From an uncultured Candidatus Peribacteria bacterium (GTDB lineage Bacteria > Patescibacteriota > Gracilibacteria > BD1-5 > UBA2023): a stretch of 64,000 nucleotides of DNA. Made by a program: the position numbers and the translations under genes. The notes under the pieces are model-generated. The model ran no database searches and had not been told where the DNA came from. It saw only the letters and a program-made list of their open reading frames with translations. The DNA is taken from positions 35 through 64,034 of the forward strand of contig CAZXUQ010000007.1 in the NCBI GenBank assembly GCA_964644075.1, given 5' to 3'. Positions 1 through 50,358 of the stretch are shown piece by piece (the stretch's first letter is position 1; each line of letters starts with the position of its first letter).

Positions 1-556
1 CCGTGATTTTTCGTATCTCTCCCTCTATGAGCATACCCTCGGCAGTCGATGGATCGATCCCGTGCGACGCAAGATAAAATATTGCATCAGAGGAGATACG
101 GTGGATACGACAGGAGTGACCTCACTCGATCGAGTCTGTGGCGACTTCGAGGACAGGACGACCACGTACACGAGCTCCTTCACCGAGGAGGATATTATTT
201 TGGTCGACACGCAGTTTCACATCACTCGATCCTGGAGCTACCCGCCCGATACCATCGATTTCGATATTTGACCCGTCTCATGCGAGAGCGAGAAGATCGA
301 GCGATCCATCAGCGCGACTCCCTTCGATCGAAACGGTCAATTCTAGAACCATATTTGCTCATGTAGCGACCGCGCCACCACGAAATACTGCACCCTCCTC
401 GACGATGAAATGACGGACGTACTTTCCATCATTTCTCGGGATAAGGACATATTTCTGACACTCTCATGCACTGATCCTGATCTCACGAAACTCGATGTCT
501 CCTTCATCGAGGACTGAGGCATGATGCGTATGTATTTTTGGATTTTCGCACTTCAT
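1..556 (-). CDS. sufD: SufB/SufD-family Fe-S cluster assembly protein; N-terminal ~185 codons, gene runs off the left edge
   Basis: Minus-strand frame from ATG (rc at 554-556) reads MKCENPKIHTHHASVLDEGDIEF...NNILLGEGARVRGRPVLEVATDSIEGGHSCRIHRISSDAIFYLASHGIDPSTAEGMLIEGEI. This matches the SufB/D C-terminal signature (xLEIxxDDVxxxHGxxxGxxxxxxxFYLxSRGI). Four in-frame TGA read as Gly. Confidence 0.7.
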
Positions 557-757
557 ATGGCGAAGTATAGAGAGACTCTACGAAATGGCAAAGAGAAATC
601 TTTGGAAAAAGTGAGAAATTTTGATAATATAGAGAAAGTTTCGGGTTTTCAGGGGTTTTTGAAGAATATCTATGAACTTAGTAGGGGTTTGGGGGAAGAA
701 ACTGTTTGAGGCAGATGAGAACAGAAAAAAGAAAGGCAGAGCGAGCGAGTTTTTCTT

Positions 758-817
758 CCACCGAAACTTTTGGATACTTTTGGTTACAAAAGTATCAGGA
801 AAGAGACACCGGATTTC
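758..817 (+). promoter_or_regulatory. Conserved ~60-nt element with a perfect 9-bp hairpin (GATACTTTT-GGTTAC-AAAAGTATC at 773-796), about 60 nt upstream of the T4CP-like gene; copy A
   Basis: The same hairpin and similar flanks recur at 43326-43384 upstream of trxB. In both copies the flanks are oriented relative to the downstream gene. Confidence 0.45.
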
Positions 818-853
818 TTTCCCGTTCTGCAACCAGACAGGCTCAGCCTCGCA

Positions 854-3253
854 ATGACAAAAATCATGAATAATAACCATAGTATCATCACCTACGAAGT
901 ATCCGTCGACCGCGCCAATGAAAAGGGCGTTTTCGTCGCCCGCGAGATGCTCTCGACTCTTCACCATGCGATCGAACACGCGAGTCCATGGTGGAAATTT
1001 TGGACAGAGAAAGTTCACCCAAGTTTTCGTTTCGAAATCGTCGCTCGAGACGGACAGATACGGTTCTTTTTTTCGACAGATCGGGCTTTTGCATCATTTC
1101 TCTCGAGCCAGCTCTACGCTCACTATAGCGATATCGAGCTCATAGAAGTCTCTCACTCACTCGACTCTGAGAAATCCTACAGAGCCAAGGAAGTCACGCT
1201 CGCACACCACTCACTCGAGACGATCAAGCTCTATGTAAATATGAAAGATCGTACTGAAAAAGAATCTGTCGATCCACTCTCATCCCTCACGAGTGCGCTC
1301 GCGAAAGTAGCGAAGTGAGATAGTGCTGGATACATCATAGATTTCTCTCCACTCGAAGATCATGTCTGGCGAACTGAGCACCGCGCGCATATCTGGTGAT
1401 GGCATCTCCCTCTGGGTATCAAGATGCAACTCCTTCACTTCTGGTGATCGATCGGATGGCTCATGCTCCCCATCTCATGGTCGTTTGCTCTCGTAGGATG
1501 GCTCATGCCGAGAGACCAACATGAGACCCATGATGATGAAAAACACGAAAAAGGAAAAGTAGAAACCAAAATAGATACATTCGGATATATGGCCCGTATT
1601 CTCGTGGTGAAGGAAAAGAGAGATGCCCTCAGTGATGAGGTCATGATAAAAGAACTCGCGAGTAGTATGAATATTTTTGCTAACCCAGGGGGCAATAGTT
1701 TCCTCATGAAAAAAACAAAACTTCTCATGAGGCTCCCCCCTATAAAAAAACTCCCAAAATCCTCGATGATCCTCTCGACGACAGAGCTCGCAGGCATCAT
1801 CCATATGCCGACACTCTACGTGAAAACTCCGGGCATCCACTGGGTGACGACACGAAAATTTGAACCACCACATGAGCTCCCGAGTACAGATGCCCCCAAT
1901 ACTCCGATCGGTATGGCGAACTACCGTGGTGGGAAAGAAGGTTTTGGACTCAAACCTATCGATCGCGCTCGACATGTCTATATCATCGGTAAGACCGGTA
2001 TGGGAAAGTCGACGCTTCTCGAAAACATGATCTATACAGATATCCTCAATGGTCGAGGTGTCGCTGTGATCGACCCACATGGGGACCTCGTCGAGACGAT
2101 CCTCGCCAATATTCCGAAGTCACGAACCAACGATATCGTCCTCTTTGATCCTGCCGACCAGGAGTATCCGATCGCGTTCAATATGCTCGAAAATAGTCGT
2201 CCCGAGCTTCGTCCGATCGTGGCTGGCGGACTGGTATCGATCTTTAAAAAAATGTTTGCCGAGAGCTGGGGACCACGTCTCGAGTACATACTCCGTAACA
2301 CTATCCTCACGCTCCTCCTCATCCCTGAGACGACGATGATTTCTATACCGCTCATGCTCACACATGAGGCCTATCGAAGGAAGGTCGTCTCGAAGATCGA
2401 TGATCCGATCCTCGTACAGTTCTGGAATGAAGAATTTGCCAAGATGAGTCCCTCGATGCAGAGCGAGGCGGTGAACCCGATTTTGAATAAAGTCGGGCAA
2501 TTTCTCTCTTCTCCAATCCTCAGAAATATCCTCGGTCAGCCGAAAAATCCCTTTTCTCTGCGATGGATCATGGACAATGGGAAGATCTTTCTCGTGAACC
2601 TTTCGAAGTGACGCATCGGTGAAGATGCCAGTGCACTCCTCTGATCGATGATGGTGACCAAGTTCCAGATCGAGGCGATGACCCGAGCTGATATCCCCGA
2701 GAGTGAGCGTCGAGATTTCGGACTCTATGTCGATGAGTTTCAGAACTTCGCCACTGACTCTTTCGCGACTATCCTCTCCGAGGCTCGTAAGTACAAACTC
2801 TCTCTCACCATGGCGAACCAATATGTCGAACAAATGGCAGAAACCGTACAGGGTGCAGTATTCGGAAATGTCGGATCACTCATCGCTTTCCAGGTAGGCT
2901 ATCATGATGCTGTCACGTTTGCTGAGGTATTTGGCGGGGAAGACGTGATCACTCCACAGGACCTCACCAACCTCCGAAAATACGATATCTATACGAAGCT
3001 TCTCATCGATGGTATGCCTTCGCCAGTATTCTCTGCGACGACGTATGCGCCACTGCGGGACCGTATCGATGTACCTCCACAGCAGACACGTGATGTCCTC
3101 ATGAAGGTTTCTCGAGAAAAATACACCAAGAAAAAAGACTTCGTCGAAAAAAAGATCTTCGACACTGTGGCGAAGATCCGAGAAGAAGAGAAAAAGTATC
3201 GAGAAGAGAAAGAGTCCCACAAAGAGAAGAAGAAAGAAGGAAAAAAGGAGTAG
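854..3253 (+). CDS. VirD4/TraD-type coupling-protein-like ATPase, paralog 1 (about 799 aa)
   Basis: Three same-frame ORF fragments (770-1318, 1463-2611, 2648-3253) joined only by TGA. Motifs: Walker A IIGKTGMGKST, DPHGDL, Walker B-like LYVDEFQNF, SEARKYKLSL, GNVGSLIAFQVG (TraG/TraD C-terminal-type module). Central hydrophobic segment and K/E-rich tail. ATG at 854 chosen; the TTG at 770 lies inside the upstream hairpin. Confidence 0.8.
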
Positions 3254-3259
3254 CAAACT

Positions 3260-3772
3260 TTAAGCTGGAGGATTCATAATATCTCTAACTACTTTTTTTG
3301 TTTCTTCTGCACTCCGTGCAAGTCTTACCTTATCACATATTCATTGAAAAAATATTATGAGGTTTTTATCGGAAACTAAGGTCTGATCTTTTTGTAACCA
3401 TACATATTTTCTGGTTTGTGTATCAATATAACCAAGGTCATACACTCCTGTAAGCAATGGATCTAGTAAGCGGAGTCCTATAATAGCAGCTATCTCATTA
3501 TGAGGGTTACATACTGGGTACTCATTTTCGATATGACGAAAGTATGAGTTGGATCATAAAGAGAGTGAAACAAACTTGGATGATCGTATATCTAGAAATG
3601 CTGCTTCGGATCATCTACTGATAACCCAGTAGTCATCTAGTTTATAAGTTTCTTCATCTATGGTTACATCTGGATAAAATCAAAAGATAACTTTTCTTTT
3701 CTCAGAAAAGTCTTTCGCTTCTTGAAGTTGTTCTTGTAAGATTTCAAAAGGATCCTTGATAAGAAGAGACAT
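3260..3772 (-). CDS. Hypothetical protein (170 aa)
   Basis: 170 codons without TAA/TAG in an AT-rich stretch, checked triplet by triplet, with 4 in-frame TGA. Begins MSLLIKDPFEILQEQLQEAKDF. No recognisable family. Invisible in the standard-code track. Confidence 0.5.
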
Positions 3773-3907
3773 GCGCGGTTTCTATATAAAAATAAGTTCG
3801 AATAACCTAATCATAACCTCTGTTTTGTCAAATTTTTTTCATACTATTCACTATCTGTCAATGACAGAATAGTTTTTGATTTCGAGAAAACTCCCTATAC
3901 TCCTCAG

Positions 3908-4079
3908 GCTCTCCATTCATGGTGGGGAGTGGTGGGCTTTTATATCCCCACCAACTTATTTTTCATTTTTATGAAAATAGTAGTTTCGCTCTCTGTTTGG
4001 AGAGTTCGATTTGCATTCGAGATTGTTCTCGGAAAGTAGATCGAAAAAATCCCCCTAAGTGGTACTATGGGGGATTTTT
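3908..4079 (+). ncRNA. Candidate small RNA, family copy 1 (paralog at 15208-15372)
   Basis: TATACT -10 box at 3896-3901. Nested helices CTCTCC...GGAGAG and GGTGGGGA...TCCCCACC, hairpins TTTTCATTTTTATGAAAA and TCGAGA-TTGT-TCTCGG. Intrinsic terminator ATCCCCC...GGGGGAT plus T-run at 4049-4079. The overlapping 80-aa ORF is not conserved in the paralog. Confidence 0.4.
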
Positions 4080-4157
4080 GATGGTGAGAAGCGATACGCT
4101 TTTATACCAACTTATTTGTCGTAGTTTCGTTCGACATGAGGATTATACCATATTTTC

Positions 4158-5192
4158 ATGAAAATCAAATTTTTCCTTCTCTCGAAAATTGCTTTTTTCC
4201 CTCTTTCTGCTAAAGTACAGAGTATAACTTTGTCTATGTTCAAACTCTTTCTCTCCATCCTAGCCCTCATACTCCCACTCGGAGCGACATTTGCTGCTAA
4301 CCCTACGACCGAGGAGCTCAATCTGAAAACTCCCACCATCAAAACACAGTGAGGTGAATCAGATGCACTCGCGACATTTATCGGACCTGTAGGTGAACTC
4401 TTTTTTATGCCGAGCTTGCGCGATGAGTCGGTGATCAATACATTTTTGAGTATTGCCTTTGCGCTCAAGAACTTTTTCATCGCTATTGCGGTGATATTTC
4501 TCATCATCGGAGTCCTCAAGCTCCTCTTCTCCTGGTGAGATGAGGAAGATATCAAAAAATGGCGGAGAAACATCATATGGACATCTGTGGGTATCGTCGT
4601 CATGCAGATAGCGACATCCGTCTGGCGCACGCTCTACCTCACTGAGTCTACCCAAAATATCGATGGTCGCCTCGGATGGCAGTTTTGGAGCAATATATTT
4701 GAGCCGCTCGTGAACCTCATGCTCATCGTGGCAGGATTTGGTTTCCTCCTCATGATGGTATATGCATTTTACATCATCGTGACGGGTGGTGGCGATGAGG
4801 AAAAACTCAAAAAATGAAAAAATATCGTGATCTACGCTGTGATCGGATTTCTCCTCATACGCATACCCCGTCTTTTTGTCATCGCTATCTACTGAGAACC
4901 GAAAGATGCCTGTAAAGACACGACTCTTTTCTCGATCGGTAACTGTATGATGTGAGAGAAAAAACTCGAGGGAGCTATCGGTATATTTGGAAAGATACTT
5001 TCTTTCGTCAATGGTTTCATCATGCTCATCACTGTAGCTCTCGTCATCTACGCAGGATGGCTCGTGCTCATCTCTGCCTGAGATGAGGAAAAACTCAAAA
5101 AAGCCAAAAATATTGCTCTCTATATCGTCGTCGGTCTCGTGCTCCTCGTCGCCTGACATGCTCTGTTTCGATTTTTTGTTCTCAGAGGGTAG
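4158..5192 (+). CDS. Membrane protein with three tandem VirB2/TrbC-like (T4SS pilin-type) repeats
   Basis: Same-frame fragments joined by TGA. Three helix / short acidic-basic loop / helix units: SGGDEEDIKKWRRNIIWTSVGIVVM, GGGDEEKLKKGKNIVIYAVIGFLL, SAGDEEKLKKAKNIALYIVVGLVLL. N-terminal signal-like MFKLFLSILALILPLGATFA (alternative start 4236). Confidence 0.65.
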
Positions 5193-5231: not shown

Positions 5232-7661
5232 ATGACTGTGGGCGAGCTCATCTTCATTGTCCTGATGACTCTCACGATATCGTGAGTGGTCTATATTTCC
5301 ATGAGGAGAAAAATCGCTCTCAAGCGCTCTCTCGACATGACATTTTTGCGCGTCGTCATCGCTCGCAAGGACTCTGACGCTGATGAAAAAAAGGAAACAG
5401 TAAAAGATTTCCGAGAGCAAATATCGATCATGGAACAGCTCCTCGCGAGTCTCAAGTCACTCTACGCGAGTACGCTATCGGGTTGGCTTTTTGGTCAGGA
5501 ATATCTCTCTCTCGAGTATGTCGCCCATAAACAAGAGATTTATTTCTACATCGTCGTCCCGAAAAAAGCTCGCCTCCTCGTAGAAAAACAAATCATCGGT
5601 TTTTATCCTGATGCTTTCGTCGAGGAAACCCCAGAGATCAATATCTTCGAGGATCGAAGTACCATCGAGGGAGAGATCATGAAGCTCAAAAAAGCAGAAC
5701 AATTTCCGATACGTACCTACCAAAAACTCGAAAGTGATAGCATGAATGCGATCCTCTCTGCTCTCGGAAAGCTCTGAGAAGAAAACTCTGCTGCCATACA
5801 GATCCTCATGCGACCAGTAGATGATGACTGGCAGGAAAAAATCAAAAAACTCATCAGAAAAACTGAGAAAAAACACCATGGAAGTCACTTCTCGTGGAAC
5901 CCACTCGAGTGGATCGGCATACTGATCGACCTTTTTACTCGAGATCCGAGCGAAGAACGAGCAAAAGAAGAACCCAAAGATGACGAAGATCCGATCGATG
6001 ATGAAGGTCTCATGAAGGAAAAAGTGAAAAAAACAGGATATGCTACCACTATCCGCATCATCACGACATGACAGGATCGTGCAAGTGTCCATGCAGAACT
6101 CGAAAATATTATTTCATCTTTTTCCCAGTTTGCCTCCCCAGCGTATAACCGGTTCAAAGCTGTGAAAAGGAAATCTCTCTCTCTGCTCGTACACCACTAT
6201 ATATTTCGTCAGTTTGCCTGGTGGCAACACGCTCCGATCATGAACAGTGAGGAGATCGCCACGCTCTATCACTTCCCTGCGAGTAAATACAACCGACAAC
6301 CAGAGATCCGCTGGCAACGGTTCAAGCTCATAAAAGCACCTACGAATATCCCAAAAGAAGGTCTCTATATCGGGGATAATATTTTTCGTGGTGAGAAAAA
6401 ACCAATTTTCGTAAAAAATGAAGATCGTTTCCGACACTTCTACGTGATCGGACAGACAGGTACAGGAAAATCATCTATCCTCTCGACGATGATCCGTCAG
6501 GATCTGCGTGGTGAGAAATGACTCGCTGTCCTCGATCCACATGGTGATCTCGCTCGCGATACGCTGAACTTCATCCCGAAATCTCGTGCTGACGATCTCG
6601 TCTACTTTGACCCCGCTGACCTCTCTCGGCCGATGGGACTCAATATGCTCGAAGCGGTCAATGATGATGACAAACAGATGGTCGTCGCCGATGCGACCAA
6701 TATCATGATCAAGCTCTTTGGAAATGAGATATTTGGTCCGCGTATCCAGGACTACTTTCGAAACGGATGTCTTACACTCTTGGACTATCCACAGGGATGA
6801 GCCATCACAGATCTGATCCGTCTTTTTACCGATGATAACTTCCAGCGAGAGCGTCGTACCACTCTCAAAAACGCCGTCGTAAAAGCCTGGTGGGACTATA
6901 CCTATGCCAAGATGGGTGATCGAGAAAAGGGTGAAATCATCCCGTATTTCGCAGCGAAATTCGGTCAGTTCATCACCAATACACTCATGCGAAATATCGT
7001 GGGTCAGACAAAATCTGCCTTCGATATCACTGACATCATGAACAATGAGAAGATCCTCCTCGCAACTCTCTCGAAGTGAGTCCTCTGAGACCTCAACTCC
7101 AATCTCCTCGGTCTCATCCTCGTGTCAAAGATCCAGATCGCCGCCATGCGCCGACAAAATATGGCAAAAGAAGATCGAAAAGACTTTTTTCTCTATATCG
7201 ATGAATTCCAAAACTACGTCACTGACTCGATCGAGAGTATCCTCTCTGAGGCACGTAAATACCGTCTCGGTCTCGTGATAGCCCATCAGTACCTCGGCCA
7301 GCTCCAGAAATCCGATGCCCTCACTAAGTCGAACCTCAATCTAAAAGATGCGATATTCGGTAACGTGGGATCGATCATGAGTTACAAGATCGGACCCGAG
7401 GATGCCGAGATGATGGCGAAGCAGTTTGCTCCCGTCTACTCAGATCAGGACTTTATCAATATGGATAAATTTAAGGCAGCGCTCCAACTCTCAGTCGATG
7501 GACAACCAACGGCAGGGTTCTCACTCTCAGTCCCACTCCCGTGGCTTGAGAAATGAGATCCTACAACTGGAAATGCTCTCAAAGAACTCTCTCGACTCAA
7601 GTACGGTCGCGAGCGTGAGTTTGTCGAAAAAGAAATCATTTACCGCATCGGTGCCACATAG
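5232..7661 (+). CDS. VirD4/TraD-type coupling-protein-like ATPase, paralog 2 (about 809 aa)
   Basis: Fragments 5286-5777, 5808-6071, 6162-6521 and 7122-7556 share one frame and are joined by TGA. N-terminal TM helix. Motifs VIGQTGTGKSS, DPHGDL, GLNMLE, FLYIDEFQNY, SEARKYRLGL, GNVGSIMSYKIG. Confidence 0.8.
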
Positions 7662-9118: not shown

Positions 9119-9203
9119 TGGTGCCCAGGAAGAGACTTGAACTCTTACACCGTAAGGCAACGGCTTCTAAGACCGTCGTGTCTACCAATTCCACCACCTG
9201 GGC
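9119..9203 (-). tRNA. tRNA-Leu (anticodon TAG), class II, CCA encoded
   Basis: Reverse complement GCCCAGGTGGTGGAATTGGTAGACACGACGGTCTTAGAAGCCGT...GGTTCAAGTCTCTTCCTGGGCACCA. Anticodon loop CTTAGAA, long variable arm. Confidence 0.9.
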
Positions 9204-9215
9204 AGACATCCTGTA

Positions 9216-9300
9216 TGGTGGGCCGGGAGGGATTCGAACCCCCGAAGTCGTAGACAAAGGATTTACAGTCCTCCCCATTTGACCGCTCTGGAACCGACCC
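9216..9300 (-). tRNA. tRNA-Tyr (anticodon GTA), long variable arm, CCA encoded
   Basis: Reverse complement GGGTCGGTTCCAGAGCGGTCAAATGGGGAGGACTGTAAATCCTT...GGTTCGAATCCCTCCCGGCCCACCA. Anticodon loop CTGTAAA. Confidence 0.9.
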
Positions 9301-9313
9301 ATATATACAAAAA

Positions 9314-9389
9314 TGGAGCCACCTATCAGACTTGAACTGATGACCGCCGGTTTACAAAACCGATGCTCTACCAACTGAGCTAAGGTGGC
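9314..9389 (-). tRNA. tRNA-Thr (anticodon TGT), CCA encoded
   Basis: Reverse complement GCCACCTTAGCTCAGTTGGTAGAGCATCGGTTTTGTAAACCGGCGGTCATCAGTTCAAGTCTGATAGGTGGCTCCA. Anticodon loop TTTGTAA. Confidence 0.9.
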
Positions 9390-10412: not shown

Positions 10413-10932
10413 TGTTTTTGATTCTTTCTGTATCATTTGTACAAAAATTGCTCTTTTTGTGTATTGATATGAAATTGGTGAATCTTTGTTTTGGTATTTG
10501 TAGCAGGAAGATCCTGTGAGAGCAGGGTTCCTATTATCAGTCAGTCGAGTCTTGTTAAGGGTCAATCTCTTGCGAGATGACACAGGTAGTATATCAGTTT
10601 TTTTCTAAGAGAGCGAGTCACTCGAGCTTGTCTATTTCAGAGAGAAATGTAATACTATATTTTCATCTCGGGGTTTCCTCTCTGTGATCATAAAACACCC
10701 TTTCTCTATTTTTCGGACAGTTATTGAACCATTTCTGTATAAATATTGTGTATTTGTATAGTATGTGTATACATCTTTTCCTTTCTATAGAGAGAAAAAT
10801 TCATCTATTTCGCCCGAAAAAATATCAAAAAATTCCTCTCCATCCTGTGAAATGTGAGAGGAACACTATATCTAGTGGTATGCTGTATTTTTCCTTTTCC
10901 TTGAGAGGAAAACTTGATCATTTGGTCGAGTT

Positions 10933-11649
10933 TTAAAGATGCTCGAGGGCAAAAGTCATGACGACACCCGCAGTCTCCGTACGGAGCACTCGCTCTCAAA
11001 AACGAGCAAATATAAAACCATTTTCTTTCATTTTTTTACGTTCATTTTCACTCCATCCACCCTCTGGCCCTACCCAGATGCCGATCTCACGATTTATGGG
11101 CATTTTTGTGAGTTTTAGGAGGGTTCCTGTGGTATCGAGGACGATATGTTGTGTTTGGTTGGGTTCTATGACTCGTCATGGGGTCGCCTCGATAGCAGTT
11201 CCTTCGAAAAATTCTATTTCTGGCATGACCATGCCACCACACTGCTCGAGAGCTTCCCGAGCAATCGAGAGGAATCGTGCTTTCTTATTTTCTGAGAGTA
11301 TGAGCTTTTGTGAGTGCTCCGATCGGAAGAAAACAAATCGTTTCACTCCGACTTCGACACCCTTTTCGAGGATGTATTCGATCTTTTCCATCTTGTTTGG
11401 GAGAGCCTGATAGAGCGTAATATCGCGATCTCACTCCGTTTTTGGAAAGCTTCTTCCTTTTCATTTGAGTGAAACTGACTTCTTGGTGATATGTGTGATC
11501 GTGTAGGTATACTCACTTCCATCACCGTCAAAGAGGACAATATCCTCACCTGGAGCCACTCGCATAACACGAGTAAGTTGGTGAACGATGTCAGTATCAG
11601 TGAGTTCGAGATCGATCGTAAGCGGGAATGTGACGTAAAATCGTTGCAT
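10933..11649 (-). CDS. rsmE: 16S rRNA (uracil1498-N3)-methyltransferase RsmE
   Basis: MQRFYV...VHQLTRVMRV..GEDIVLFDGDG N-terminus and C-terminal IGIWVGPEGGWSENE...ERVLRTETAG motif. Fragments 11461-11649 and 11176-11391 joined by TGA. Confidence 0.85.
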
Positions 11650-13988: not shown

Positions 13989-14717
13989 TTAAAATCCATT
14001 TTGCCTGATATCACTTATGAGCTCTTGTCCGCCATGGCGATCGATTTGTCAAGACTTCATAATGATGACGCGGTCAACATTTATAGAGTCAAGGAGATGA
14101 AAGTTATGAGAAATAATAATAATCATCTTCGACATACTTCGCCACTTATCGATCTCGCGAGAGAGGATATCTATGGCTCCGATATCCAGTCCAGCATCGA
14201 TCTCATCGAGGACGATCACACGAGGGTCCAAGAGAGCAATCTGGAGCATCTCGATACGGCGTTTTTCTCCTCATGAGAATCCGACGTAGAGATCTCGGTC
14301 GAGAAATTTTGGGTCGATACCATAGTCTGGGAGGAGCTTTTCTACTATGCGTCGAAAAACAAATGGTGTCGGTGGTTTGGCTTCTGGATTTTTACGACTA
14401 AATGCATGATTGTAGATCGTGCGAAGATACTCGATGAGGCGAATACCTGGGATTTCTGGAACATTTTGGAACGAGAGAAACATACTTTTTCTCGCGAGTT
14501 CATGTGGCAAAAGGCTACTGATATCCTCTTCATCAAGTCCTACTTCCCCACTCATCGTGTAGCGAGGATGGCGAAAAAGAGCGAATGCGAGTGAGGATTT
14601 CCCACTTCCATTCGTCCCGAGGAGTGCATATACGTGAGCATCCTCGAAAGTATAGGAAATATCAGGGATAATAATTTTATCCTCGACTGAGACAGAGATG
14701 TTCGAGAGACGAAGCAT
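13989..14717 (-). CDS. sufC: Fe-S cluster assembly ATPase SufC
   Basis: ABC ATPase motifs LLGTNGSGKSSL, GFSG(TGA)GEKRR, IVLDEIDAGLD, IIISH. C-terminus after TGA read-through is ...IIMKSGQIDRHGGQELISDIRQNGF. Stop is 1 nt from the sufB start. Confidence 0.95.
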
Positions 14718-14723
14718 GGCGAC

Positions 14724-14751
14724 ATGATAAGGATAGGATGGGAAAAATCAA
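14724..14751 (-). promoter_or_regulatory. Putative sufCB promoter: TTGATT-N16-TATCAT, with the -10 box only 6 nt from the ATG
   Basis: Reverse complement reads TTGATTtttcccatcctatcctTATCATgtcgccATG. The same TTGAxx-N16-TATAxT architecture recurs at other starts and at the sRNA modules. Confidence 0.4.
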
Positions 14752-14797
14752 AACATTTTCACTTTGATTTCATACTTCATTTTTATATACTAGTCGG

Positions 14798-14989
14798 GCT
14801 CCTAGTCCATCTATGGAGCTAGGAGTTATCATTAACCCTCTCATTTTATGAGAAAACTCCTGTATAGATGGCTCCTATTCTTCGGAATTGAGCCAGTCAT
14901 TCTCTTTCGGAGAGTGACAGGTCGGACTCGCAGGAAACTCTTGCGTCAGTACCGATAACAGAAAAAGAGCCTTCGTAGGGCTCTTTTTC
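14798..14989 (+). ncRNA. Candidate small RNA with consensus promoter and intrinsic terminator
   Basis: TTGATT (14764-14769), 16-nt spacer, TATACT (14786-14791). Hairpins CTCCTAG...CTAGGAG, TCTCATTTTATGAGA, GTCATTCTC-TTTCG-GAGAGTGAC and CGCAGG-AAACT-CTTGCG. Terminator AGAGCC-TTCGTA-GGGCTCT plus T-run at 14966-14989. No conserved ORF. Confidence 0.4.
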
Positions 14990-15207
14990 TTTGGAGTTAT
15001 CGCTAACAATCCTGTATAGATTTCGTCTTTCGACGACAGAAGCAGTATATATCACTTCCTAGAAAAATCAAAACTTTTTCCGAAAACTCACGAAAAATCC
15101 CTTCAGAAATGAGGGGATTTTTTATCTTTTCTAAAAACCAAAAGCCCTCGCATGAAGCGATGAAAGGGTCGGTTTGAATTCTGGAAAAGTTTCCATATAC
15201 TCTAGCT

Positions 15208-15372
15208 GCTCTCCACTCGGGTGGGGAGTGGTGGGCTTTTATATCCCCACCGAATACTTTTCATTTTTATGAAAATAGCTATTACATTCTCCGTTTGGAG
15301 AGTACGACTGGCTTTCGAGATCACTCTCGGGAAATAGTCATGAAAAAGACCCTTCTTCAGAGGGTCTTTTTC
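15208..15372 (+). ncRNA. Candidate small RNA, family copy 2 (paralog of 3908-4079)
   Basis: TTGAAT (15174-15179), 16-nt spacer, TATACT (15196-15201). Near-identical core GCTCTCCA.TC..GGTGGGGAGTGGTGGGCTTTTATATCCCCACC...TTTTCATTTTTATGAAAATAG...TTTGGAGAG...TTCGAGAT..CTCTCGG. The terminator has a different sequence but the same structure (GACCCT-TCTTCAG-AGGGTC plus T-run). Confidence 0.45.
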
Positions 15373-15480
15373 TTTGGTAGAGCAGTGAAGCTTTTACCAC
15401 CGAATACTTGTCGCTATTACATGACAATAGTATTATATCCCTCTTTCTCGAGAAATCAAAACTTTTTCTGAAAAGTCACC

Positions 15481-15506
15481 AAAAATCCCCCCGAAAATCG
15501 GGGGGA
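15481..15506 (-). terminator. Intrinsic terminator of the S-layer-like gene
   Basis: CCCCCCG-AAAAT-CGGGGGG followed, on the minus strand, by a T-run. Lies 36 nt after the stop. Confidence 0.7.
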
Positions 15507-15541
15507 AGATTGGACTTTAAAGAGAGAAGTTACCTAAAAAG

Positions 15542-18508
15542 TTAAGGAGCAGATGTAGCAGAAGCATTTACTTCAGTACCAACATCGTATGATCGGTTAA
15601 CTGCAACTCCATTAACAACATATGAAACGTTGCTAGCAGAAATAGTTACCTGATCTCCTGTTGCCCAACCTGGAACTGTATGCATGTATACTTCGAAGCT
15701 TGTTGAAGAGTTCTTCGTAAGTGGAACAGGTATTGTTGAAAGGTTGGCAAAGTAGAATGTACCAGTTACTCCTGCATTTACCGCTGTAACTGCATTGGAG
15801 TATCCTGAGTTTGTACAAGCATTTGTACCATTGCTGCTTCCACCAACTTCTCTTATACAAAGAAGGCTGTTGATAGTAGGAGCTGTTCCATTTGCAGTAT
15901 AGCGATACTTAAATTCGAGAGTAATACCCGAAAGAGTAATGCCTGTATTTGAGTCACCATTTGTAATGGTAATCTTAGCAATCGCCTTAGTACTTGCAAG
16001 AAGTTTAACAGAATCAACCTTGATTGAAGGTGGAACTACACTAATAGTGTAAGCCTTCATAGTTGATGTAAACGGTGGAAGAGCGACTGTAGCACCTCCA
16101 TTTACAGTAGTAACTGTAATATTTGTAGGGCTAATAATCTGGAGCTGAACTCCTGAACCGTAGATTGAATCAAGAGTCTTAACTGTAGTAAATACTACCT
16201 TAATATTCTGATCTTCATCCTTAGCAATGTCATTAGTCATACTATCTACAGTAACTGTGTTACCTGAAAGAGTGACTGTACCCTGAAGTTTTGCATCAGT
16301 GGCAACATTTCGAAGCTCAATGCTAGATGCATCTACAACATCTGAAAGAAGAGCTGAACCAATATTGTTAATAACAATCTTCGTTACACGAACTGCATCG
16401 CCTTCAGCACGAAGAGCGAAGCGTCCAACTTCCTGATTTGTCGTAGAAGAAATCTTATCGTTAGAATTTCCTGTGTTTACAGTAGCATTCTTGAGAGTAA
16501 GAGTAGGAGCCTGGATAGTAGTCTTATCACCAGTTACTGTATCAGTAAGAAGAGAAACTGCATTGTTAGCAGCATCACGAACATCCGCAAGTTTTACTTG
16601 GAATGTATAGTTCTGTGAACCAGCAACTGTGTTCTTGATAGAAGAACCAACGATAGTAATACGACCAGATGTGGCAGTATCAACAGGGATAGAGACGGTT
16701 TTAGTAATTGCATATGTAGCACCTGTAAAATCAGCAGAAGTGATTGTAGCAACTTCTGAACCATTTACTTTGACAGAGAGCTGATCATTAGCAAACGCAT
16801 ATACACCAGAGCTTGTTCCAGATGGAGTAATAACGAGCTGGCGAACATTGAGAGGAACTGTAGAAGTTACTTTTCCATCAAAGAGAGTCACGTTAGATGC
16901 TCCTGGGGCAACAGTCTGATTAACAGATGATTGCTTAGTATAAGTTACATCAACATTAGAGAAAGTAACAACTTCTGCAAATGATGCATACCCAGTAGTT
17001 GTGGTAGCATATCCTGTGGCAACCTCCGTAGCTGAAACATCAGAAGATGATTCGATCTTGAATCCGAGAGTGTTCGTAGAAGCACTTCCATCAACGAGAA
17101 CGTCAGCCTTGATTTCAAATGCCTGGAAGTTACCAGCAGCAAGAGCTGTAGAGAGACCTGTAACAGAAAGTTTATCTGCAGTTACAGTAGCAGTCCCAAC
17201 AGCAACACCGTTTTTGTATACCTTAACGTTAGCAAACTTCTTCGTAAGATCGTTTGATCCAGAACGAGTAAGAGTGAATCCGTTTACAGTAACATCACGG
17301 CTACCTGCGGTAAGATCTACTTTAGCGATAGTCTGCTGAGTTTTTCCTGGAGTAGCTGTATAGTTGTATGTACCAGCAACAGTTACTGAAGTAGTTACAT
17401 ATGAAGTAGTGTTGAGAAGACCAAGAGTCACTGGAGCACCAGTAACTGTAGTATTATCAGCATTTACAGCAGTAAGAGCAAACTGGTGTTGGCTATTCTC
17501 GGCACCTGAAAGGTTAACGAGGATATCTACAGTCTGAGATGCACCAGCCTTAACAGTAAGTGCAGGGTAGAAGTAGACAGTACCGTTCTGAGAAGTAGAG
17601 TTGTAGAAGTCAGAAGAAGACGATACAACGACACCATTCTGAGCAGCACGGATACCGTTATTTGAAGCGATATCGTTTGCATTACCAAGACCTGAACGAG
17701 TTACAACGAGTGATCGAACAGTAACGTCAGATGCTCCAGCTGTAAGCTTAACAGATCCAACCTTAACGCTAGAAGCGTTCTTTGGAACGTATTGAGCCAT
17801 AGCCTGACCATCGAGGGCAACTGTAAGAGCTCCCATAACTGTACCTGTAGAAGTCGTACCAGTAGATCCACCTGTAGATCCTGAACCAGTGTTTCCACCA
17901 GTAGATCCACCGTTGTCTACCTCGAGACCTGCACATGTAGCAGCTACCTTAAATGCTTCTCCACGAGTAGAGTTTGCATTTGGGCGGAAGTATGAACCAT
18001 CAGCGACACATCCGAGTTCGTTGGCACGGTTAACGTATCCAGCGAGATCTCCGAGACCGTTAAGGTCCATGTAACCAGCGTCTGTAGAAGATGCTGTCTC
18101 ACCGAGTGCTCCGAGGATCATCTTGACCATCTCAGCACGAGTGACATTAGCATTTGGACGGAATGTAGCAGAAGCAGTAGAAACTACACCTGCATCAGCG
18201 AGAGCCTCGATGTAACCACAGAGGTCTCCGAGACCTGTACCTACGTCAGAGTAGACGTCACCAGTACAAGCAACTGAATCAATTCCACCAAGGTTAGCAA
18301 CCACCTTTGCGATTTCCGCGCGAGTGATATTGCTAGAAAGACGGTATCCTGCCTCAGTAGACTGAGTAGAGATTACACCGTTATCAGCAAGCAGTTCAGC
18401 ATAAGGAAGAAACTCTGAAGCAGCAGCAACAAGTGATGCACTTGTAGAAGTAGCCACGAGAGTGACGATCCCCACACTAGAAGCAAGCTTCGTAAAGAAG
18501 TTACTCAT
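15542..18508 (-). CDS. S-layer-like surface protein with three N-terminal SLH repeats (about 988 aa)
   Basis: Signal-like MSNFFTKLASSVGIVTLVATSTSASLVAAA. SLH-type repeats (...ADNGVIS...ITRAEIAKVVANL; YIEALADAGVVS...FRPNANVTRAEMVKMILGAL; ...FRPNANSTRGEAFKVAA). Gly/Ser/Thr linker and long T/V/S/N-rich beta-type body. Uninterrupted even in the standard code (no TGA). ATG at 18508 preferred over the ORF-track start at 18571. Confidence 0.8.
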   Translation of the reverse strand: MSNFFTKLASSVGIVTLVATSTSASLVAAASEFLPYAELLADNGVISTQSTEAGYRLSSNITRAEIAKVVANLGGIDSVACTGDVYSDVGTGLGDLCGYIEALADAGVVSTASATFRPNANVTRAEMVKMILGALGETASSTDAGYMDLNGLGDLAGYVNRANELGCVADGSYFRPNANSTRGEAFKVAATCAGLEVDNGGSTGGNTGSGSTGGSTGTTSTGTVMGALTVALDGQAMAQYVPKNASSVKVGSVKLTAGASDVTVRSLVVTRSGLGNANDIASNNGIRAAQNGVVVSSSSDFYNSTSQNGTVYFYPALTVKAGASQTVDILVNLSGAENSQHQFALTAVNADNTTVTGAPVTLGLLNTTSYVTTSVTVAGTYNYTATPGKTQQTIAKVDLTAGSRDVTVNGFTLTRSGSNDLTKKFANVKVYKNGVAVGTATVTADKLSVTGLSTALAAGNFQAFEIKADVLVDGSASTNTLGFKIESSSDVSATEVATGYATTTTGYASFAEVVTFSNVDVTYTKQSSVNQTVAPGASNVTLFDGKVTSTVPLNVRQLVITPSGTSSGVYAFANDQLSVKVNGSEVATITSADFTGATYAITKTVSIPVDTATSGRITIVGSSIKNTVAGSQNYTFQVKLADVRDAANNAVSLLTDTVTGDKTTIQAPTLTLKNATVNTGNSNDKISSTTNQEVGRFALRAEGDAVRVTKIVINNIGSALLSDVVDASSIELRNVATDAKLQGTVTLSGNTVTVDSMTNDIAKDEDQNIKVVFTTVKTLDSIYGSGVQLQIISPTNITVTTVNGGATVALPPFTSTMKAYTISVVPPSIKVDSVKLLASTKAIAKITITNGDSNTGITLSGITLEFKYRYTANGTAPTINSLLCIREVGGSSNGTNACTNSGYSNAVTAVNAGVTGTFYFANLSTIPVPLTKNSSTSFEVYMHTVPGWATGDQVTISASNVSYVVNGVAVNRSYDVGTEVNASATSAP

Positions 18509-34810: not shown

Positions 34811-37800
34811 TTACTGAACGACAATTTCTTCATAGATCATGCTGACGCCATGTTCACGAGAGAGAATGTCTTTATTGATGACTGGGGCATTTGCCTCTGT
34901 TTTTCCCTGGGCTGCATCGAGGAGTTTTATAGCTTCCCCGTAGGTAATAGAGTCATCTCCACGGAAGCTCGGCATATCAGGATTGATCCACCCCATGACG
35001 ATACCAAATACGATATACTTACGGAACTCAGAGTTTCCGACATCACGGAACTTCATGACGCTATCCATGTCTGACATTTCCTCAAATCCATAGGCAAGAG
35101 AGAGGACTTTCATAAACTCGTTTCGTGTCATCGGACGCTCAGGATCAAACTTCTTTGTATTTTTTACATACCCACTTTCTATCATCGCAGTGATAGCTTC
35201 CTGGTAGTCAGAGTTGTCGATGTCTGACACGATGATATCTTGTGTCGAAGTTGTCGAAAGTGGAGTTTGTGCCTCTGTATGCACTCCTTCTGGAGTATTT
35301 CTGAGGAGACGTTCGAGAGCGGTTATTCCAAGTTGCATATTTGGATTACTTGATACAGTCGAAGTTGCCTGATTTGCCGAAGGGACAAGTGGAACTCCAC
35401 CAATGATGTTTCCACCTCCGCCCCCTCCACCTCATGTACTTGGTGCAATGACAACCGGAGCTGGCACTACCACATTTACGATACGGGATACAGGAGTTGC
35501 CTGATTTCCTACACTATCAGAAACTGTATATACTAGAGTGTATGATCCTGTCAGTGATGTATTCACAGAACCTGATCGAGTTACCATTCCTGTGATATTA
35601 CCATCGACATTATCTGTCGCGACTACTCACATGTCTGTGTAGGTTGTACCCTGAGTGACCGTCGTAGGACTCGTACCGAGGAGCGTGATCACTGGTGCCG
35701 TCGTGTCGATGTTCGCCACATTTGCCACTACTGATCCTGTATTTCCAGATGCATCCTGAAATGTAAAGGTAAATGAACCATTTGAACTAAATACATAGTT
35801 CGAATTTCCAGTATTATTGGTAATCGTAATCAACTCACTTGCTCCCGTAAGAGTCGCTGTCACACTTCCACTTGTTGTCGAAAGTGTCGAATATGTCACA
35901 CTGGCTGTCGGAGGAGTAGTGTCGACGACATGGATGGTACGGACTGCCCCTGTACCGACATTCGATGAACTGTCCGTATATTCATATGAAACAATATACG
36001 TTCCCAGTGCTCCTGTATTTACACTTCCACTATTGTACCCTGAGATGAATCCACTTCCATCGACATTATCTGTCCATGATGCCCCATCATCGACAAACCC
36101 TGACCCGAACTCAACATTGACTGTCGCAGCTCCTGAGAGTGTGATGACAGGAGGAGTGGTGTCTGGTGCAGCAAGGACATTGACTGTACGGAATGCTATG
36201 CCAACATTTGAAGAGCTATCAGTGTAACGGTACTCAATCATATACGTGCCTACAGTATTGGTATCTACAGATCCAGAGTAGACTCATACTGTGCCAGAGC
36301 CATCATATGCATCGGTCCAACTTGCTCCACTTTCCGTATAAGTGTCACCTACCACGAGTGTAATAAGAGAACCACCTACGGCTACTACACTTGGTGCTGT
36401 CGTATCTTGTACTATGATTGTTCTATCGGCTCCTGTACCAACATTTGAAGAGCTATCCGTATATTCGTATGACACAGTATAGGTTCCGAGTGCCCCTGTG
36501 TTGACGGATCCACTCGTATATCCTGGTATAAATCCACTTCCATCGACATTATCTGTCCAACTCGCTCCATCATCGATAAAATCATTTCCATACTCGACAT
36601 TGACTGTCGCAGATCCAGAAAGAGTAATCACTGGAGGTGTGGTATCTGGAACTGGTATGATGTTCACACTACGAGACGTCGATCCTGTATTTCCAGAACT
36701 ATCTACATAGTTGTATCAGATAGTATATGTACCTACAGTGTTTACATCGAGAGTTCCACTGTTGTAACTCGGTATCACTCCTGCACCATCGTGAAGGTCT
36801 GTCCATGTGGCACCAGAGTCGCTAAATACACTACCGGAGAGGAGAGTAATCATACCAGAACCAACGAGTGTCACTACTGGCACTGTCGTATCTACGACAT
36901 TGACTGTACGAGAAACTGAACCCGTATTTCCAGAACTATCGATGTATCGGTAACCGAGCGTATATGTTCCGAGTGTTCCTGTATTGACCGATCCAGTTGT
37001 CGCTACTGGGATGAGCCCTGACCCATCGTAAGCATCTGTCCATGATGCACCATCTTCACTATAGTCATTTCCATACTCGACATTGACTGTTGCAGATCCA
37101 GACAGGGTGACAACTGGTGCCGTCGTATCTACGACACTCACAGTTCTCGTTACAGTTCATGTATTTCCTGATATGTCTGTGTAGGTATACTCAAGAGTGT
37201 AATTCCCGAGTACTCCCGTATTTACTGCCCCGCTCGTCGCACTTAGGATCACTCCTGCACCATCGTGAAGGTCTATCCATGATGCTCCGAGTTCGACATA
37301 TGCATTCCCATATTCGACATTCAGAGTTGATGATCCAGAAAGGGTGACGACAGGATTGGTCGTATCGATAACACTGACTGTACGACTCGTGGATCCTGTA
37401 TTCCCCGCACCATCTGTATAGCTATACTCGAGTATATAGGTTCCGAGTGCCCCGGTATTTACACTTCCACTTGTTGCAGTAGCAATATATCCAGAACCGT
37501 CGATATTGTCTGTCCAACTCGCCCCATCTTCACTATAGTCATTTCCATATTCGACATTGACTGTCGCAGATCCAGAAAGAGTGACAACTGGAGGAGTCGT
37601 ATCTGGTGCAGAAAGGACATTGACGGTACGAGAAACTGAACCTGTATTTCCAGAAATATCAGTATATTCATATGCGATCGTGTAGGATCCAGTACTATTG
37701 GTGTCGAGAAAGCCACTATTGTAACTCGGGATCACTCCTGCACCGTCATGGAGGTCTGTCCATGATGCTCAGACATCCGTATACCCACTTCATACGAGGA

Positions 37801-40800
37801 TACTCACGAGAGCAGCTCCAGAAAGAGTGACGACTGGAGCGGTCGTGTCCTCTACTACTACTGTACGAGTAGCTCATGAACTATTCCCCGCATCATCTAC
37901 CTTCAGATACTCGAGCACATACGTTCCAAGAGATCCAGTATTTACGCTTCCTGAGAGAGCAAATGACCCTGGAGTTCCATAGCTTCCTGTGAAAACATTT
38001 CATGAACCATCGACGTTATCTGTCCATGAAGCACCATCCTCACTATAGTCATTGCCATACTCGACAGAGACTGTCGCAGATCCTGAGAGTGTTACTACGG
38101 GTGCTAATGCGTCAGTTACCGTCACTGTACGAAATCCCATACCGACATTTCCTCAGCCGTCAGTGTAACGATACTCAAGAATATATACTCCTGGAGTATT
38201 TATATCGACCGCTCCAGTATATGGAGTCGCGAGAAATCCAGAACCATCGACGTTATCTGTCCATGTGGCTCCACTTTCTGTATAGCTTGCACCTTGGTTT
38301 ATCGTCACGAAGTTTCCTCCTACTGGAATGACACTCGGCCCTGTCATATCAGCGACAGTGACGCTACGAGTAACCTGGACTGCAGGATTGCTCGCAGCAT
38401 CTGTCACATCGTATGTGATGATGTACGTACCAGTATGACTCGTATCGACTGTTCCACCAGTCATGATGCTGGCTGTGATATCCCCGTCGACATTATCGAG
38501 TGCTGTCGCTCCACTATCCACATAGATAGATCCATGAGCCACTATCATCGTTCCTGATCCGATGAGGGTGATGACGGGAGGGGTTGTGTCTGGTGCAGCT
38601 ATGACGTTTACTGTACGACTTATTGACCCTGTATTTCAGGAACTATCTATATATCGATAGCTGAGTACATATGTCCCGAGAGATCCAGTATTTACTAACC
38701 CACTATATGGTCCCGAGAGATTTCCCGATCCATCGTGGACATCACTCCATGATGCTCCTGACTCTGTATAGATCGAGTTTTGGTATATCGTGAGGTTTCC
38801 TGATCCGATGAGCGTCACGGTGGGAGCGGTAGTATCTACGACATTCACAGTCCTTCCTGTCGAAGTACTATTCCCCGCACCATCTGTGTAGCTGTACTCG
38901 AGCATATAGGTTCCGAGTGCTCCTGTATTTACGCTTCCACTTGTTGCGGTAGCAATAAACCCAGAACCATCTACATTATCTGTCCAACTCGCCCCATCAT
39001 CGACAAACCCTGACCCAAACTCGACATTGACTGTCGAAGATCCTGAGAGCGTGATTACCGGTGCTGTCGTGTCGATGTTCGCCACGCTTGCCACTACTGA
39101 TCCTGTATTTCCAGATGCATCCTGAAATGTAAAGGTAAATGAACCATTTGAACTAAATACATAGTTCGAATTTCCAGTATTATTGGTAATCGTAATCAAC
39201 TCACTTGCTCCCGTAAGAGTCGCTGTCACACTTCCACTTGTCGTCGAAAGTGTCGAATATGTCACACTGGCTGTCGGAGGAGTTGTGTCTCGCACAACTA
39301 CACTTCGTGTCGCACCAGAGCTATTTCCTGAACTGTCTACTTTCAGGTACTCGAGCGTATACGTTCCGAGTGCTCCTGTATTTACACTTCCTGAAACAGC
39401 AAATGATCCTATGTTCCCATATGTTCCTACAAAAGTATCCCCAGAACCATCTACGTTATCTGTCCATGATACTCCTGGTTCCATATAATCATTCCCAAAT
39501 TCTACATACTCAATCATGGATCCAGAGAGTACTACTACTGGAGGAGTGTTATCTGGTGCAGCTATGACGTTTACTGTACGACTTGTTGACCCTGTATTTC
39601 CTGCACCATCTGTATAACTATATTCCAGTATATACGTTCCGAGTGCTCCTGTGTTGACTGATCCACTCGTCGCACTCGGGATAGTTCCTGATCCATCATG
39701 GATATCATTCCATGATGCTCCTGGGTCAGTATAGGTACTGCCAATAATGATGCTATCTGGATCTGCTCCTGAGAGGGTTACAGTAGGCGCAGTAGTATCT
39801 ACGACATTCACAGTCCTTCCTGTCGAAGTTGCATTTCCTGCATTATCTACTTTCTTATAATCCAGACTATACGTTCCAAGAGATCCAGTATTTACGCTTC
39901 CTGAGAGAGCAAATGACCCTGGAGTTCCATAGCTTCCTGTGAAAACATTTCATGAACCGTCTACATTATCTGTCCATGACGCACCATCTTCTGTATAGTC
40001 ATTTCCATATTCGACATTGACTGTCGAAGATCCAGAAAGAGTGACGACTGGAGGAGTCGTATCTCACCCCATTCCATATGATACTATCATAGATGCACTC
40101 CCCACGCCTACGTAATTTTGACTAAAATCATATCCTCCTGCTTGGTACTCGAGTCTTTGTGTAGCTACAGAGACTACGTTTCCAGTCGTCCAAACGGGAG
40201 AATTGTCTATATAAACCTCGTAATCTGTATGTCCAGTGTTTGGTGTGAGTGTTGTTAGAGCATCAGAGAGAGTCGAGTTTCTAGTATCAAAAATAAATAC
40301 TCCTCCTGTTTCGGTGATCGTCTGTCATGTAGTTGTTCCTACTCATCCACAAACAGATATAGATCCAATATCACGTAAACATACGGATCCGACAAAACTT
40401 CCTACTCCACCAGTCATACTTACTAAAAGAGTTACCCCAGATATTGTCATGCCAGTATTGCTATCTAAATTGGTCACGTGGATTTTTCCTATCGGAGCAC
40501 CATTCTGAAGACCACCAGAGTGCCCAGTGAGTACAACGGCTGGAACGGTGATAGATGCTGTATAGAGCTTCATAGCAGAAAGCATACTATCGTCGACAGC
40601 GAGTGGTGAGCTATCTGCATCTTTTACGATACTGATCATACCAGAGTTCGTCGAGAGACGAAGGGTTTGTCCATAGTATGGTTCCACTGGGCCAGCCTGG
40701 ATCACTACTTTATAGTTCGTCGTCGTATATCCAGGAGTGATAGAGTTCACTCATGAGAAACTGATCGTCTGTCATGAGATAGTCCCGACCGCGAGAAGTG

Positions 40801-41701: not shown

Positions 41702-41823
41702 ATGGATATGTGTATGGATATAAATACCCATAGAGACTACTCCATACAAAAAAATATAGCAATCTTCTTACCTTGTTTTCTGAGGAAAATGAATTGACAA
41801 AAATGTATTATAAATTCTATATA

Positions 41824-50201: not shown

Positions 50202-50358
50202 TTTTTCTTTTGTCATCCTGGAGGGATCCCTTTCAAAACGATAGAAAAGAGTGTTACTAACCAAAATCTCTTAAGCAAATGAAAAAGCTATTCCTCTGCT
50301 CCGTTCCACTTCGCGACGGAATGACAAAATTACAATAGTTTGAATCTTTACTTCTTCC

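Follow-up and report, generated by a model that had tools for sequence, protein, structure and literature searches.

Candidate par(pAD1)-like modules with small peptide frames and convergent antisense RNAs in a Gracilibacteria contig

Introduction

In the hok/Sok and aapA1/IsoA1 systems, the toxin is encoded by a strongly folded mRNA whose initiation region is held closed by intramolecular pairing. A similarly closed initiation region is predicted for module A1, an element in the intergenic region 3773-4237 of a 64,000-nt stretch of a Gracilibacteria contig (CAZXUQ010000007.1; the whole stretch is called the window below), and for two further modules of the window, A2 and C1. The hok/Sok and aapA1/IsoA1 systems differ from these modules in that their activation requires processing and in that they have neither the direct-repeat design nor the shared terminator. 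A closer counterpart is par(pAD1), or Fst-RNAII, which is defined by convergent promoters, a bidirectional terminator, oppositely transcribed repeats over the initiation region and intramolecular structures hiding that region, and whose U-turn (YUNR) loop is not present in all homologues (PMC7472228). In T1TAdb, which holds 24 families from 218 species, Fst/RNAII and SprA1/SprA1as are the two 3'-overlapping families that interact outside the overlap (PMC8594479).

We consider it probable that A1 is a type I toxin-antitoxin-style cassette resembling par(pAD1) and that the window carries three such copies. Like par of pAD1 (Enterococcus faecalis; RNA I/RNA II), its chromosomal homologues and SprA1/SprA1AS (Staphylococcus aureus), the modules have convergent promoters with a shared terminator that gives a 3' overlap in cis, oppositely transcribed direct repeats that give a second complementarity in trans over the initiation site, intramolecular structures in the 5' part of the mRNA, and interaction sites of low conservation that vary from one paralog to another. 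They differ from par in their peptides, which are unrelated to Fst/Ldr, in having three repeat segments where par has two, and in their host, a UGA-recoding member of the Gracilibacteria (Patescibacteria group) as opposed to a Firmicute. They further differ in that the AUG itself is predicted to be hidden in a hairpin without a Shine-Dalgarno sequence and the antisense RNA to bind both flanks, including codons 4-6, whereas the par antisense covers the Shine-Dalgarno sequence and the start codon. The Bacillus systems TxpA/RatA, BsrG/SR4 and YonT/as-YonT likewise combine a small-peptide mRNA with a convergent antisense RNA, but there the functional pairing is the 3' overlap (PMC8594479), whereas the main co-varying pairing of the modules lies in trans at the 5' initiation region.

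Results

Module A1 consists of two convergent promoter-like sites, a small open reading frame (ORF), a terminator between the promoters, and three direct repeats (DRa, DRb and DRc), each present once in the predicted mRNA and once downstream of the terminator. Its features are as follows, with the reverse complement abbreviated rc.

3876-3901, plus strand: promoter-like site of the peptide mRNA, a consensus match (TTGATT 3876-3881, 14-nt spacer, TATACT 3896-3901)
3908-4080, plus strand: predicted peptide mRNA of ~172 nt, its ends placed from the promoter and the terminator
3908-3930, 3931-3952, 3960-3977, 3988-4005 and 4006-4044: mRNA hairpins H1 to H5, followed by the terminator hairpin at 4045-4079
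3919-3944, plus strand: DRa, mRNA side (core GCTTTTATA at 3936-3944), repeated at 4081-4106
3951-3961, plus strand: DRb, mRNA side, CCAACTTATTT, immediately 5' to the start-codon hairpin, with a second copy at 4107-4117
3960-3977, plus strand: H3, the hairpin UUUUCAU-UUUU-AUGAAAA holding the start codon (AUG 3971-3973), with no Shine-Dalgarno sequence upstream
3971-4039, plus strand: small ORF of 22 codons and TAG (4037-4039), MKIVVSLSVWRVRFAFEIVLGK
3980-3988, plus strand: DRc, mRNA side, GTAGTTTCG (codons 4-6), immediately 3' to the start-codon hairpin, with a second copy at 4121-4129
4044-4080, both strands: bidirectional intrinsic terminator common to both RNAs (A-run, stem UCCCCC/GGGGGA, T-run)
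4044-4135, minus strand: predicted antisense RNA of ~90 nt, without an ORF
4081-4129, plus strand: downstream copies of DRa, DRb and DRc, with GTC in place of the start-codon hairpin
4142-4168, minus strand: promoter-like site of the antisense RNA, a consensus match (TTGATT rc 4163-4168, 15-nt spacer, TATAAT rc 4142-4147)

The initial annotation of this locus had described convergent mini transcription units sharing a terminator, and this layout is indeed present in the sequence and is conserved in 11 modules. The plus-strand TATACT lies where it had been placed and has TTGATT 14 nt upstream, and the terminator given as 4049-4079 was found as an A-run, stem and T-run at 4044-4080. For the minus promoter, the boxes and the 15-nt spacer stand and only the coordinates had to be moved by one base, to those listed above. 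The ~170-nt plus region described as highly structured folds at -72.4 kcal/mol (3908-4079) against a shuffle mean of -41 (z = -8.87), and 0 of 200 shuffles did as well. The ~90-nt minus transcript thought to read into the same hairpin fits its promoter-like site, and the predicted RNA has a fold z of -4.3. From its 5' end it would comprise a hairpin presenting the DRc complement, the complements of DRb and DRa, and the terminator, so that complementarity links its 5' ~54 nt in trans with 3919-3988 and its 3' ~35 nt in cis with the mRNA terminator. Overlooked by the initial annotation were the 22-codon ORF, the direct repeats with their covariation, and the third module, 14764-15071.

Two further modules lie close together elsewhere in the window. 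Module A2 is a paralog of A1, and module C1 has the same layout with a different sequence.

15174-15459: module A2, with its mRNA promoter at 15174-15201 (plus), predicted mRNA at ~15208-15372 and antisense promoter at 15432-15459 (minus)
15269-15337: A2 ORF, MKIAITFSVWRVRLAFEITLGK
15235-15241, 15247-15259 and 15278-15287: A2 repeats, with copies at 15390-15396, 15397-15409 and 15413-15422
14764-15071: module C1, with its mRNA promoter at 14764-14791 (plus), predicted mRNA at ~14798-14990 and start-codon hairpin at 14839-14853
14848-14958, plus strand: C1 ORF of 36 aa, MRKLLYRWLLFFGIEPVILFRRVTGRTRRKLLRQYR
14822-14830 and 14858-14869: C1 repeats, with copies at 14993-15001 and 15010-15021
14961-14990: C1 terminator
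~15037 to 14961, minus strand: predicted C1 antisense RNA
15044-15071, minus strand: C1 antisense promoter

The paralogous copy reported for A1 is real, but the identity of about 85% stated for its core compares with a measured mean column identity of 79% over 389 aligned columns. A1 and A2 have a 32-mer and a 21-mer in common, against 0.00 and 0.02 such matches expected by chance. The region 14700-15560 contains six promoter-like sites against 1.5 expected; those of A2 have canonical 16-nt spacers, and the antisense sites of both A2 and C1 also have 16-nt spacers. Both RNAs of each module are predicted to be structured (mRNA z = -7.0 in A2 and in C1; antisense RNA z = -4.0 in A2 and -4.8 in C1). 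Extra bidirectional terminator-like hairpins occur between and after the modules, at 15092-15123 and 15486-15506, and the extra hairpin beside the S-layer gene end is kept in a module-free relative, L009.

The A2 terminator hairpin (15339-15372) has a sequence unlike that of A1, which the initial annotation had taken as a hallmark of selection on RNA structure. This is weak evidence, because any intrinsic terminator is well paired; we rejected the difference as structural covariation and regard it as a terminator replacement. In the alignments, strong covariation links the two RNAs to each other and is also seen within two mRNA hairpins, the 5'-terminal one and that of the start codon.

Seven Gracilibacteria contigs yielded 11 distinct modules that are complete and 2 that are cut, and all complete modules share the small ORF, the bidirectional terminator and the downstream repeat copies. 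The modules fall into three types by their peptides: A (22 aa), B (30-32 aa) and C (36 aa). The third type A copy, A3, was found in L003, a Gracilibacteria metagenome-assembled genome; type B modules in L003, L015-17, L023 and L018; and further type C modules in DNA from L013, L023 and L025. A -35/-10 pair with a spacer of 16-17 nt is present upstream of the modules other than A1, L018 being the exception because of a degenerate -10 of its peptide mRNA; antisense promoter-like sites were also read in the other modules and are unclear in L018. In the complete modules, GCTC opens the 5'-terminal hairpin 6-7 nt past the -10. Among the type A copies, A1 itself has diverged furthest, and it alone lies away from the sufC hot spot described below.

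The type B module of L018 was picked up, at 50.1 bits and E = 1.3e-6, by a covariance model of the 5' region whose training set had not included it (E-values of this model are rough, owing to a shortened calibration). Neither this model nor a generic promoter/5'-end pattern revealed additional copies when the window and ~220 kb of related loci were scanned. In the L018 module (2183-2290, minus strand) the -10 reads CTCACT for TATACT and the DRa copies are imperfect, and this copy is possibly decaying or silenced. A scan of a genome collection with the 21-mer TTTTCATTTTTATGAAAATAG returned eight loci, of which the one in L003 was the only real module; the seven others, in unrelated taxa and left unread, are taken as chance matches of an A/T-rich palindrome. 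A second metagenome scan, with the type C peptide alignment as query, returned one locus, L013. No matches were obtained in a metagenome scan with the 22-mer H2 hairpin, in scans of viral contigs with type A, B and C patterns, or by blastn of A1 against plasmids and phages.

The coding potential of the plus RNA was examined in the three type A copies, in all of which the ORF keeps its frame, start, length and stop (the A3 peptide is MKIVITFSVWRVRLAFEITLGK). Between A1 and A2, 12 codons differ, 6 by synonymous and 6 by conservative changes, and between A2 and A3, 6 codons differ, 5 synonymously and 1 non-synonymously; these counts, like the hairpin tables, were read off the alignments by eye. 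In type C, C1 and C5 show multi-base switches of Arg and Leu codons (CGC/AGG, AGG/CGA, TTG/CTT) that leave the amino acid unchanged, which RNA structure by itself leaves unexplained. None of the A, B and C ORFs (22, 32 and 36 aa) contains UGA. The initial annotation had read A1 as a plain small-RNA module while naming a conserved peptide frame as an observation that would speak against this, and such a frame is what we found; because the 22-codon ORF keeps its start, length and stop, the A1 plus RNA is not a non-coding small RNA.

The wider explanation, that each module encodes two convergent non-coding small RNAs which share a terminator and regulate other genes, could draw on the strong predicted structure of both RNAs and on the failure to assign them to any RNA family. 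At gathering thresholds, Rfam returned tRNAs only from the whole window, and permissive E-values applied to both module regions gave only sub-threshold, terminator-driven matches (for example rli38, 27 bits against 49, and OrzO-P, 17.5 against 60); a tRNA/tmRNA scan found nothing in the modules. An 80-aa ORF overlapping A1 (3919-4161) exists as had been noted and, as also noted, is not kept in the paralogs, which agrees with a non-coding RNA; we rejected this ORF as a gene for that reason. The explanation is nevertheless very unlikely, since every copy of a given type keeps a short ORF in which synonymous changes are in excess, codon 2 and the start-codon hairpin vary in concert, and the minus RNA fits its own partner and no other locus.

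The direct repeats were compared within and between modules. Because each module carries internal direct repeats, its minus RNA is complementary to both flanks of H3, and the complementarity is matched module by module. In A1, 25 of the 26 DRa positions could form a base pair with the minus RNA (5 of these pairs being G-U), and this pairing is predicted in the pseudo-dimer fold. DRb reads CCAACTTATTT, CCACCGAATACTT and CCACCAATAACTT in A1, A2 and A3, each mirrored exactly in its own downstream copy, and DRc reads GTAGTTTCG, GCTATTACAT and GTTATCACAT, each mirrored in its own partner. The type A intermolecular helices comprise 23 pairs, 97% paired, with 9 compensatory and no one-sided changes, against 0-1 compensatory changes in slid controls; within the DRc helix, 6 of 10 pairs are compensatory and none is one-sided. 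The intramolecular helices of the type A mRNA yielded just 2 compensatory pairs. In type C, 13 intermolecular pairs (96% paired) include 3 compensatory and no one-sided changes, the antisense 5' hairpin adds 1 further compensatory pair, and the repeats TCCTGTATAGAT, CTCCTGCATAG, CTCCTTTGTAGAT and CTCCTTTATAGAT are each mirrored in their own partner. The type B repeats TTCAGCATAGA, TTTGCCATAGAA, CTGCATCGAA and TCCGTTTTGA are, by reading, each mirrored in their own downstream copy. The divergence of the interaction sites between A1 and A2 within one genome suggests, at the level of sequence, specificity of cognate pairs.

A start-codon hairpin was present in 12 of the 12 module 5' regions read, where the AUG occupies the 3' arm (types A and C) or the loop (B3 and B6). 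Changes in codon 2 are matched in the 5' arm of the hairpin (AAA/UUU, AGA/UCU, GGA/CCC), as judged by inspection, since loop lengths differ and MAFFT leaves the arms out of register across types. The stem of the 5'-terminal hairpin, H1, co-varies across module types at three pairs, with 4-6 sequences changed on both sides. In pseudo-dimer folds of A1 and A2 (mRNA 5' part, linker and antisense RNA), the antisense 5' part pairs with the mRNA and H3 is left as a side branch.

Together, these features would fit the following mechanism. A sigma-70-type promoter would drive a heavily folded mRNA of ~170 nt that lacks a Shine-Dalgarno sequence, holds its AUG in the stem of the small A/U-rich hairpin H3 and encodes the conserved 22-residue peptide. 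The convergent promoter would drive an antisense RNA of ~90 nt ending at the same bidirectional terminator, which would pair with the mRNA in trans on both H3 flanks and in cis over the terminator. Its binding would clamp the base of H3, keeping the start codon shut and translation blocked, and the duplex could form a substrate for RNase III. Loss of the cassette, or exhaustion of the antisense RNA, would leave the stable structured mRNA free to be translated, and growth would be arrested by its peptide. Presumably both RNAs are made and their pairing represses translation; the most likely mechanism is translational repression, with initiation governed by start-codon accessibility rather than by a Shine-Dalgarno sequence.

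Searches were carried out with the peptides. For the type C peptide, a HMMER search of 1.8 billion representatives gave three homologues with 71-83% identity, each at the C-terminal end of an over-called ORF and always with the same stop, though a homologous-protein search with a 40-aa query gave no candidates. A conserved motif, LP[YF]WK[HN]R, is common to the type B peptides, whose C-terminal tails are mostly basic, and the peptides of types A and C carry a hydrophobic stretch. YonT has a strongly basic C-terminal tail, which those of the type B and C peptides appear to resemble. In all three types a Trp is followed 7-8 residues on by a Glu within the hydrophobic stretch (WRVRFAFE, WLLFFGIE, WKHRLLCIE), and the 5' regions of the A, B and C mRNAs align (GCTC hairpin, GGAG, TTTAT, TAAC, start hairpin). 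Because the peptides share this Trp-Glu pattern and the mRNA 5' regions align, the sequences hint at a common origin of the three families.

We then compared the genomic positions of the modules. Most lie in one hot spot between a gene for an SLH-domain surface protein and sufC (14718-15541 in the window), which holds 0 to 3 modules per relative; it is occupied in L003, L013, L015, L018 and L023 and was compared with L009-L012, L014 and L019-L022. In seven related lineages the site is a short intergenic region without a module, and in the module-free L009, whose SufC is 96% identical, the called genes are 137 nt apart. Mixed types stand in tandem, as C-A in the window, B-B-A in L003 and B-C-C in L023. 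In relative L021, an ORF with a GIY-YIG domain lies between sufC and sufB (10886-11182) and looks like a homing-endonuclease insertion.

The unit junctions at the hot spot repeat the motif GAAAAATCAAAAC...CAC(G/C)AAAAATCC-hairpin (family D17, spacing 388 nt), and this repetition suggests that the hot spot expanded by unequal recombination. The recurring junction motif and the presence or absence of modules at the hot spot between the S-layer gene and sufC would also agree with a small mobile or recombinational DNA element whose repeats are target duplications or recombination sites with no role at the RNA level. We find this the most improbable of the explanations weighed here: the repeats are internal to the unit and do not flank it, they are interrupted exactly by the start-codon hairpin, terminal inverted repeats and a transposase are lacking, and the conserved promoters, terminators and coding frame would be left unexplained.

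A1 precedes a gene encoding a pilin-like protein of the type IV secretion system (T4SS) kind near 4238, and a small ORF with hairpins and a terminator upstream of a gene is what a leader-peptide attenuator, or another cis-regulatory leader of the neighbouring gene, would look like; weak Rfam matches to Phe_leader (22.6 bits against a gathering score of 55) point the same way. A2, however, faces the 3' end of a convergent gene and so has nothing downstream to regulate. Modules also stand in tandem and at unrelated sites, as in L025, and the A1 site is empty in L015, a relative with conserved gene order. A dedicated antisense promoter and co-varying repeats would be needless for a leader, and we regard this explanation as highly improbable.

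A more serious alternative is that the modules encode an antisense-controlled small protein with an ordinary role (a basic ribosome-, nucleic-acid- or membrane-associated protein, or one directed at a host cell) whose level the antisense RNA tunes, and which is not a toxin. No match to a known toxin family was obtained for the peptides, those of type B are basic and not hydrophobic, and the peptides are under purifying selection as ordinary proteins are. Copy number, mixed tandem arrays and presence or absence at 96% SufC identity, on the other hand, are accessory or selfish behaviour, and the diverged interaction sites of A1 and A2 suggest cognate specificity as in par paralogs (PMC7472228). 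We hold a non-toxin role to be unlikely but keep it in consideration, mainly because type B is basic rather than hydrophobic. A toxic peptide is what the architecture, the multi-copy, tandem and variable distribution and the partner-specific divergence of the interaction sites suggest.

The host setting of the modules was also examined. UGA is recoded in the window, where ORFs reach 2318 aa with tables 4/25 and 1032 aa with table 11 (window 1-64000), and in-frame TGA codons occur within the sufC and sufB frames; because of this recoding, table-11 ORF lists are fragmented throughout. The proteins nearest to the window SufC are named Candidatus Gracilibacteria and Candidatus Altimarinota, the latter being a phylum of the Patescibacteria group. 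Shine-Dalgarno motifs are missing at gene starts of the window, for example those of sufC, the pilin-like gene and RNase Y. Module A1 is flanked by the following genes.

3260-3772, minus strand: flanking gene
~4238-5192, plus strand: signal-peptide, T4SS-pilin-like gene, with homologues that have weak or faint T4SS_pilin Pfam matches

Three paralogous genes for DUF87/DUF8128 (VirB4/VirD4-like) ATPases lie at 410-3253, 5232-7661 and 46932-50264 (repeat families D8, D10, D16 and D19). The ATPase/T4SS-pilin-like neighbourhood is syntenic in relatives and is therefore probably chromosomal rather than a recent mobile element. Two giant ORFs, at 34811-41749 (minus, ~2312 aa) and 54439-60774 (plus, ~2111 aa), consist of diverged tandem repeats of ~237-483 nt (families D1-D7, D9, D12, D14 and D20) and probably encode surface proteins. 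A tRNA cluster (Leu-TAG, Tyr-GTA, Thr-TGT) is located at 9119-9389 (minus) and a lone tRNA-Leu-GAG at 63819-63902 (minus).

Discussion

Held against the par definition, convergent promoters appear as consensus matches in the three window modules and were read in others, and a shared bidirectional terminator, a G+C stem with an A-run and a T-run between the promoters, is present in every module. The repeats can pair at the initiation region outside the 3' overlap, and prediction and covariation point to mRNA structures concealing the initiation site and shielding the 5' end. Tetramers compatible with YUNR can be read in the terminator loops (CUAA in A1), but the motif is too short for this to be meaningful. 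The peptides fall within the type I size limit of <60 aa, and tandem copies occur in the window, L003 and L023; the hydrophobic character usual for type I peptides is seen as a stretch in types A and C, but type B is basic and polar. With Fst/Ldr they share the Trp and, in types B and C, the charged tail only.

Several observations count against a type I toxin-antitoxin-style cassette. The PXXXG(C) motif of Fst/Ldr is lacking in A, B and C, and the peptides of all three types gave no match at E <= 10 in Pfam, NCBIfam, PADLOC, PHROGs or PDB sequences. Type B peptides (for example MKKFAIELPYWKHRMIRIEVSDIYMRFVKRRR) are basic and polar, not hydrophobic, unlike classical membrane-targeting type I toxins, and the 22 aa of type A lie at the short end of the known type I range. 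The A1 promoter spacers, 14 and 15 nt, are unusually short, and promoters, RNA ends and the RNA duplex are predictions throughout. The sample is small (11 complete modules on seven contigs, one clade), and gene conversion homogenising the short repeats could mimic part of the covariation.

With these points included, we still favour a par(pAD1)-like cassette with an antisense-controlled toxic peptide as the probable identity of A1, A2 and C1. The literature searched contained no paper linking type I systems to Gracilibacteria or Patescibacteria. Tentatively, and with some doubt, the modules may represent an undescribed type I superfamily confined to Gracilibacteria/Altimarinota and the first in Patescibacteria, the candidate phyla radiation (CPR). 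Such a superfamily would comprise three new peptide families, among them in type B a basic non-membrane peptide with a non-classical toxic mechanism, and a new geometry in which the antisense RNA clamps both flanks of the start hairpin without a Shine-Dalgarno sequence. The par-type design is already known; what is new here are the peptides, the phylum and the proposed clamp geometry independent of a Shine-Dalgarno sequence.

The hosts are reduced, mostly uncultured, UGA-recoding episymbionts with few recognisable regulators. If the proposed identity is true, addiction or defence modules with RNA antitoxins would reach into the CPR, and three new candidate toxin peptides of 22-36 aa, easily synthesised and tested, would be at hand. 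The paralog-specific interaction sites offer a ready test set for the specificity of RNA-RNA recognition, and the modules would constitute a clean natural case of antisense control acting on start-codon accessibility without a Shine-Dalgarno sequence.

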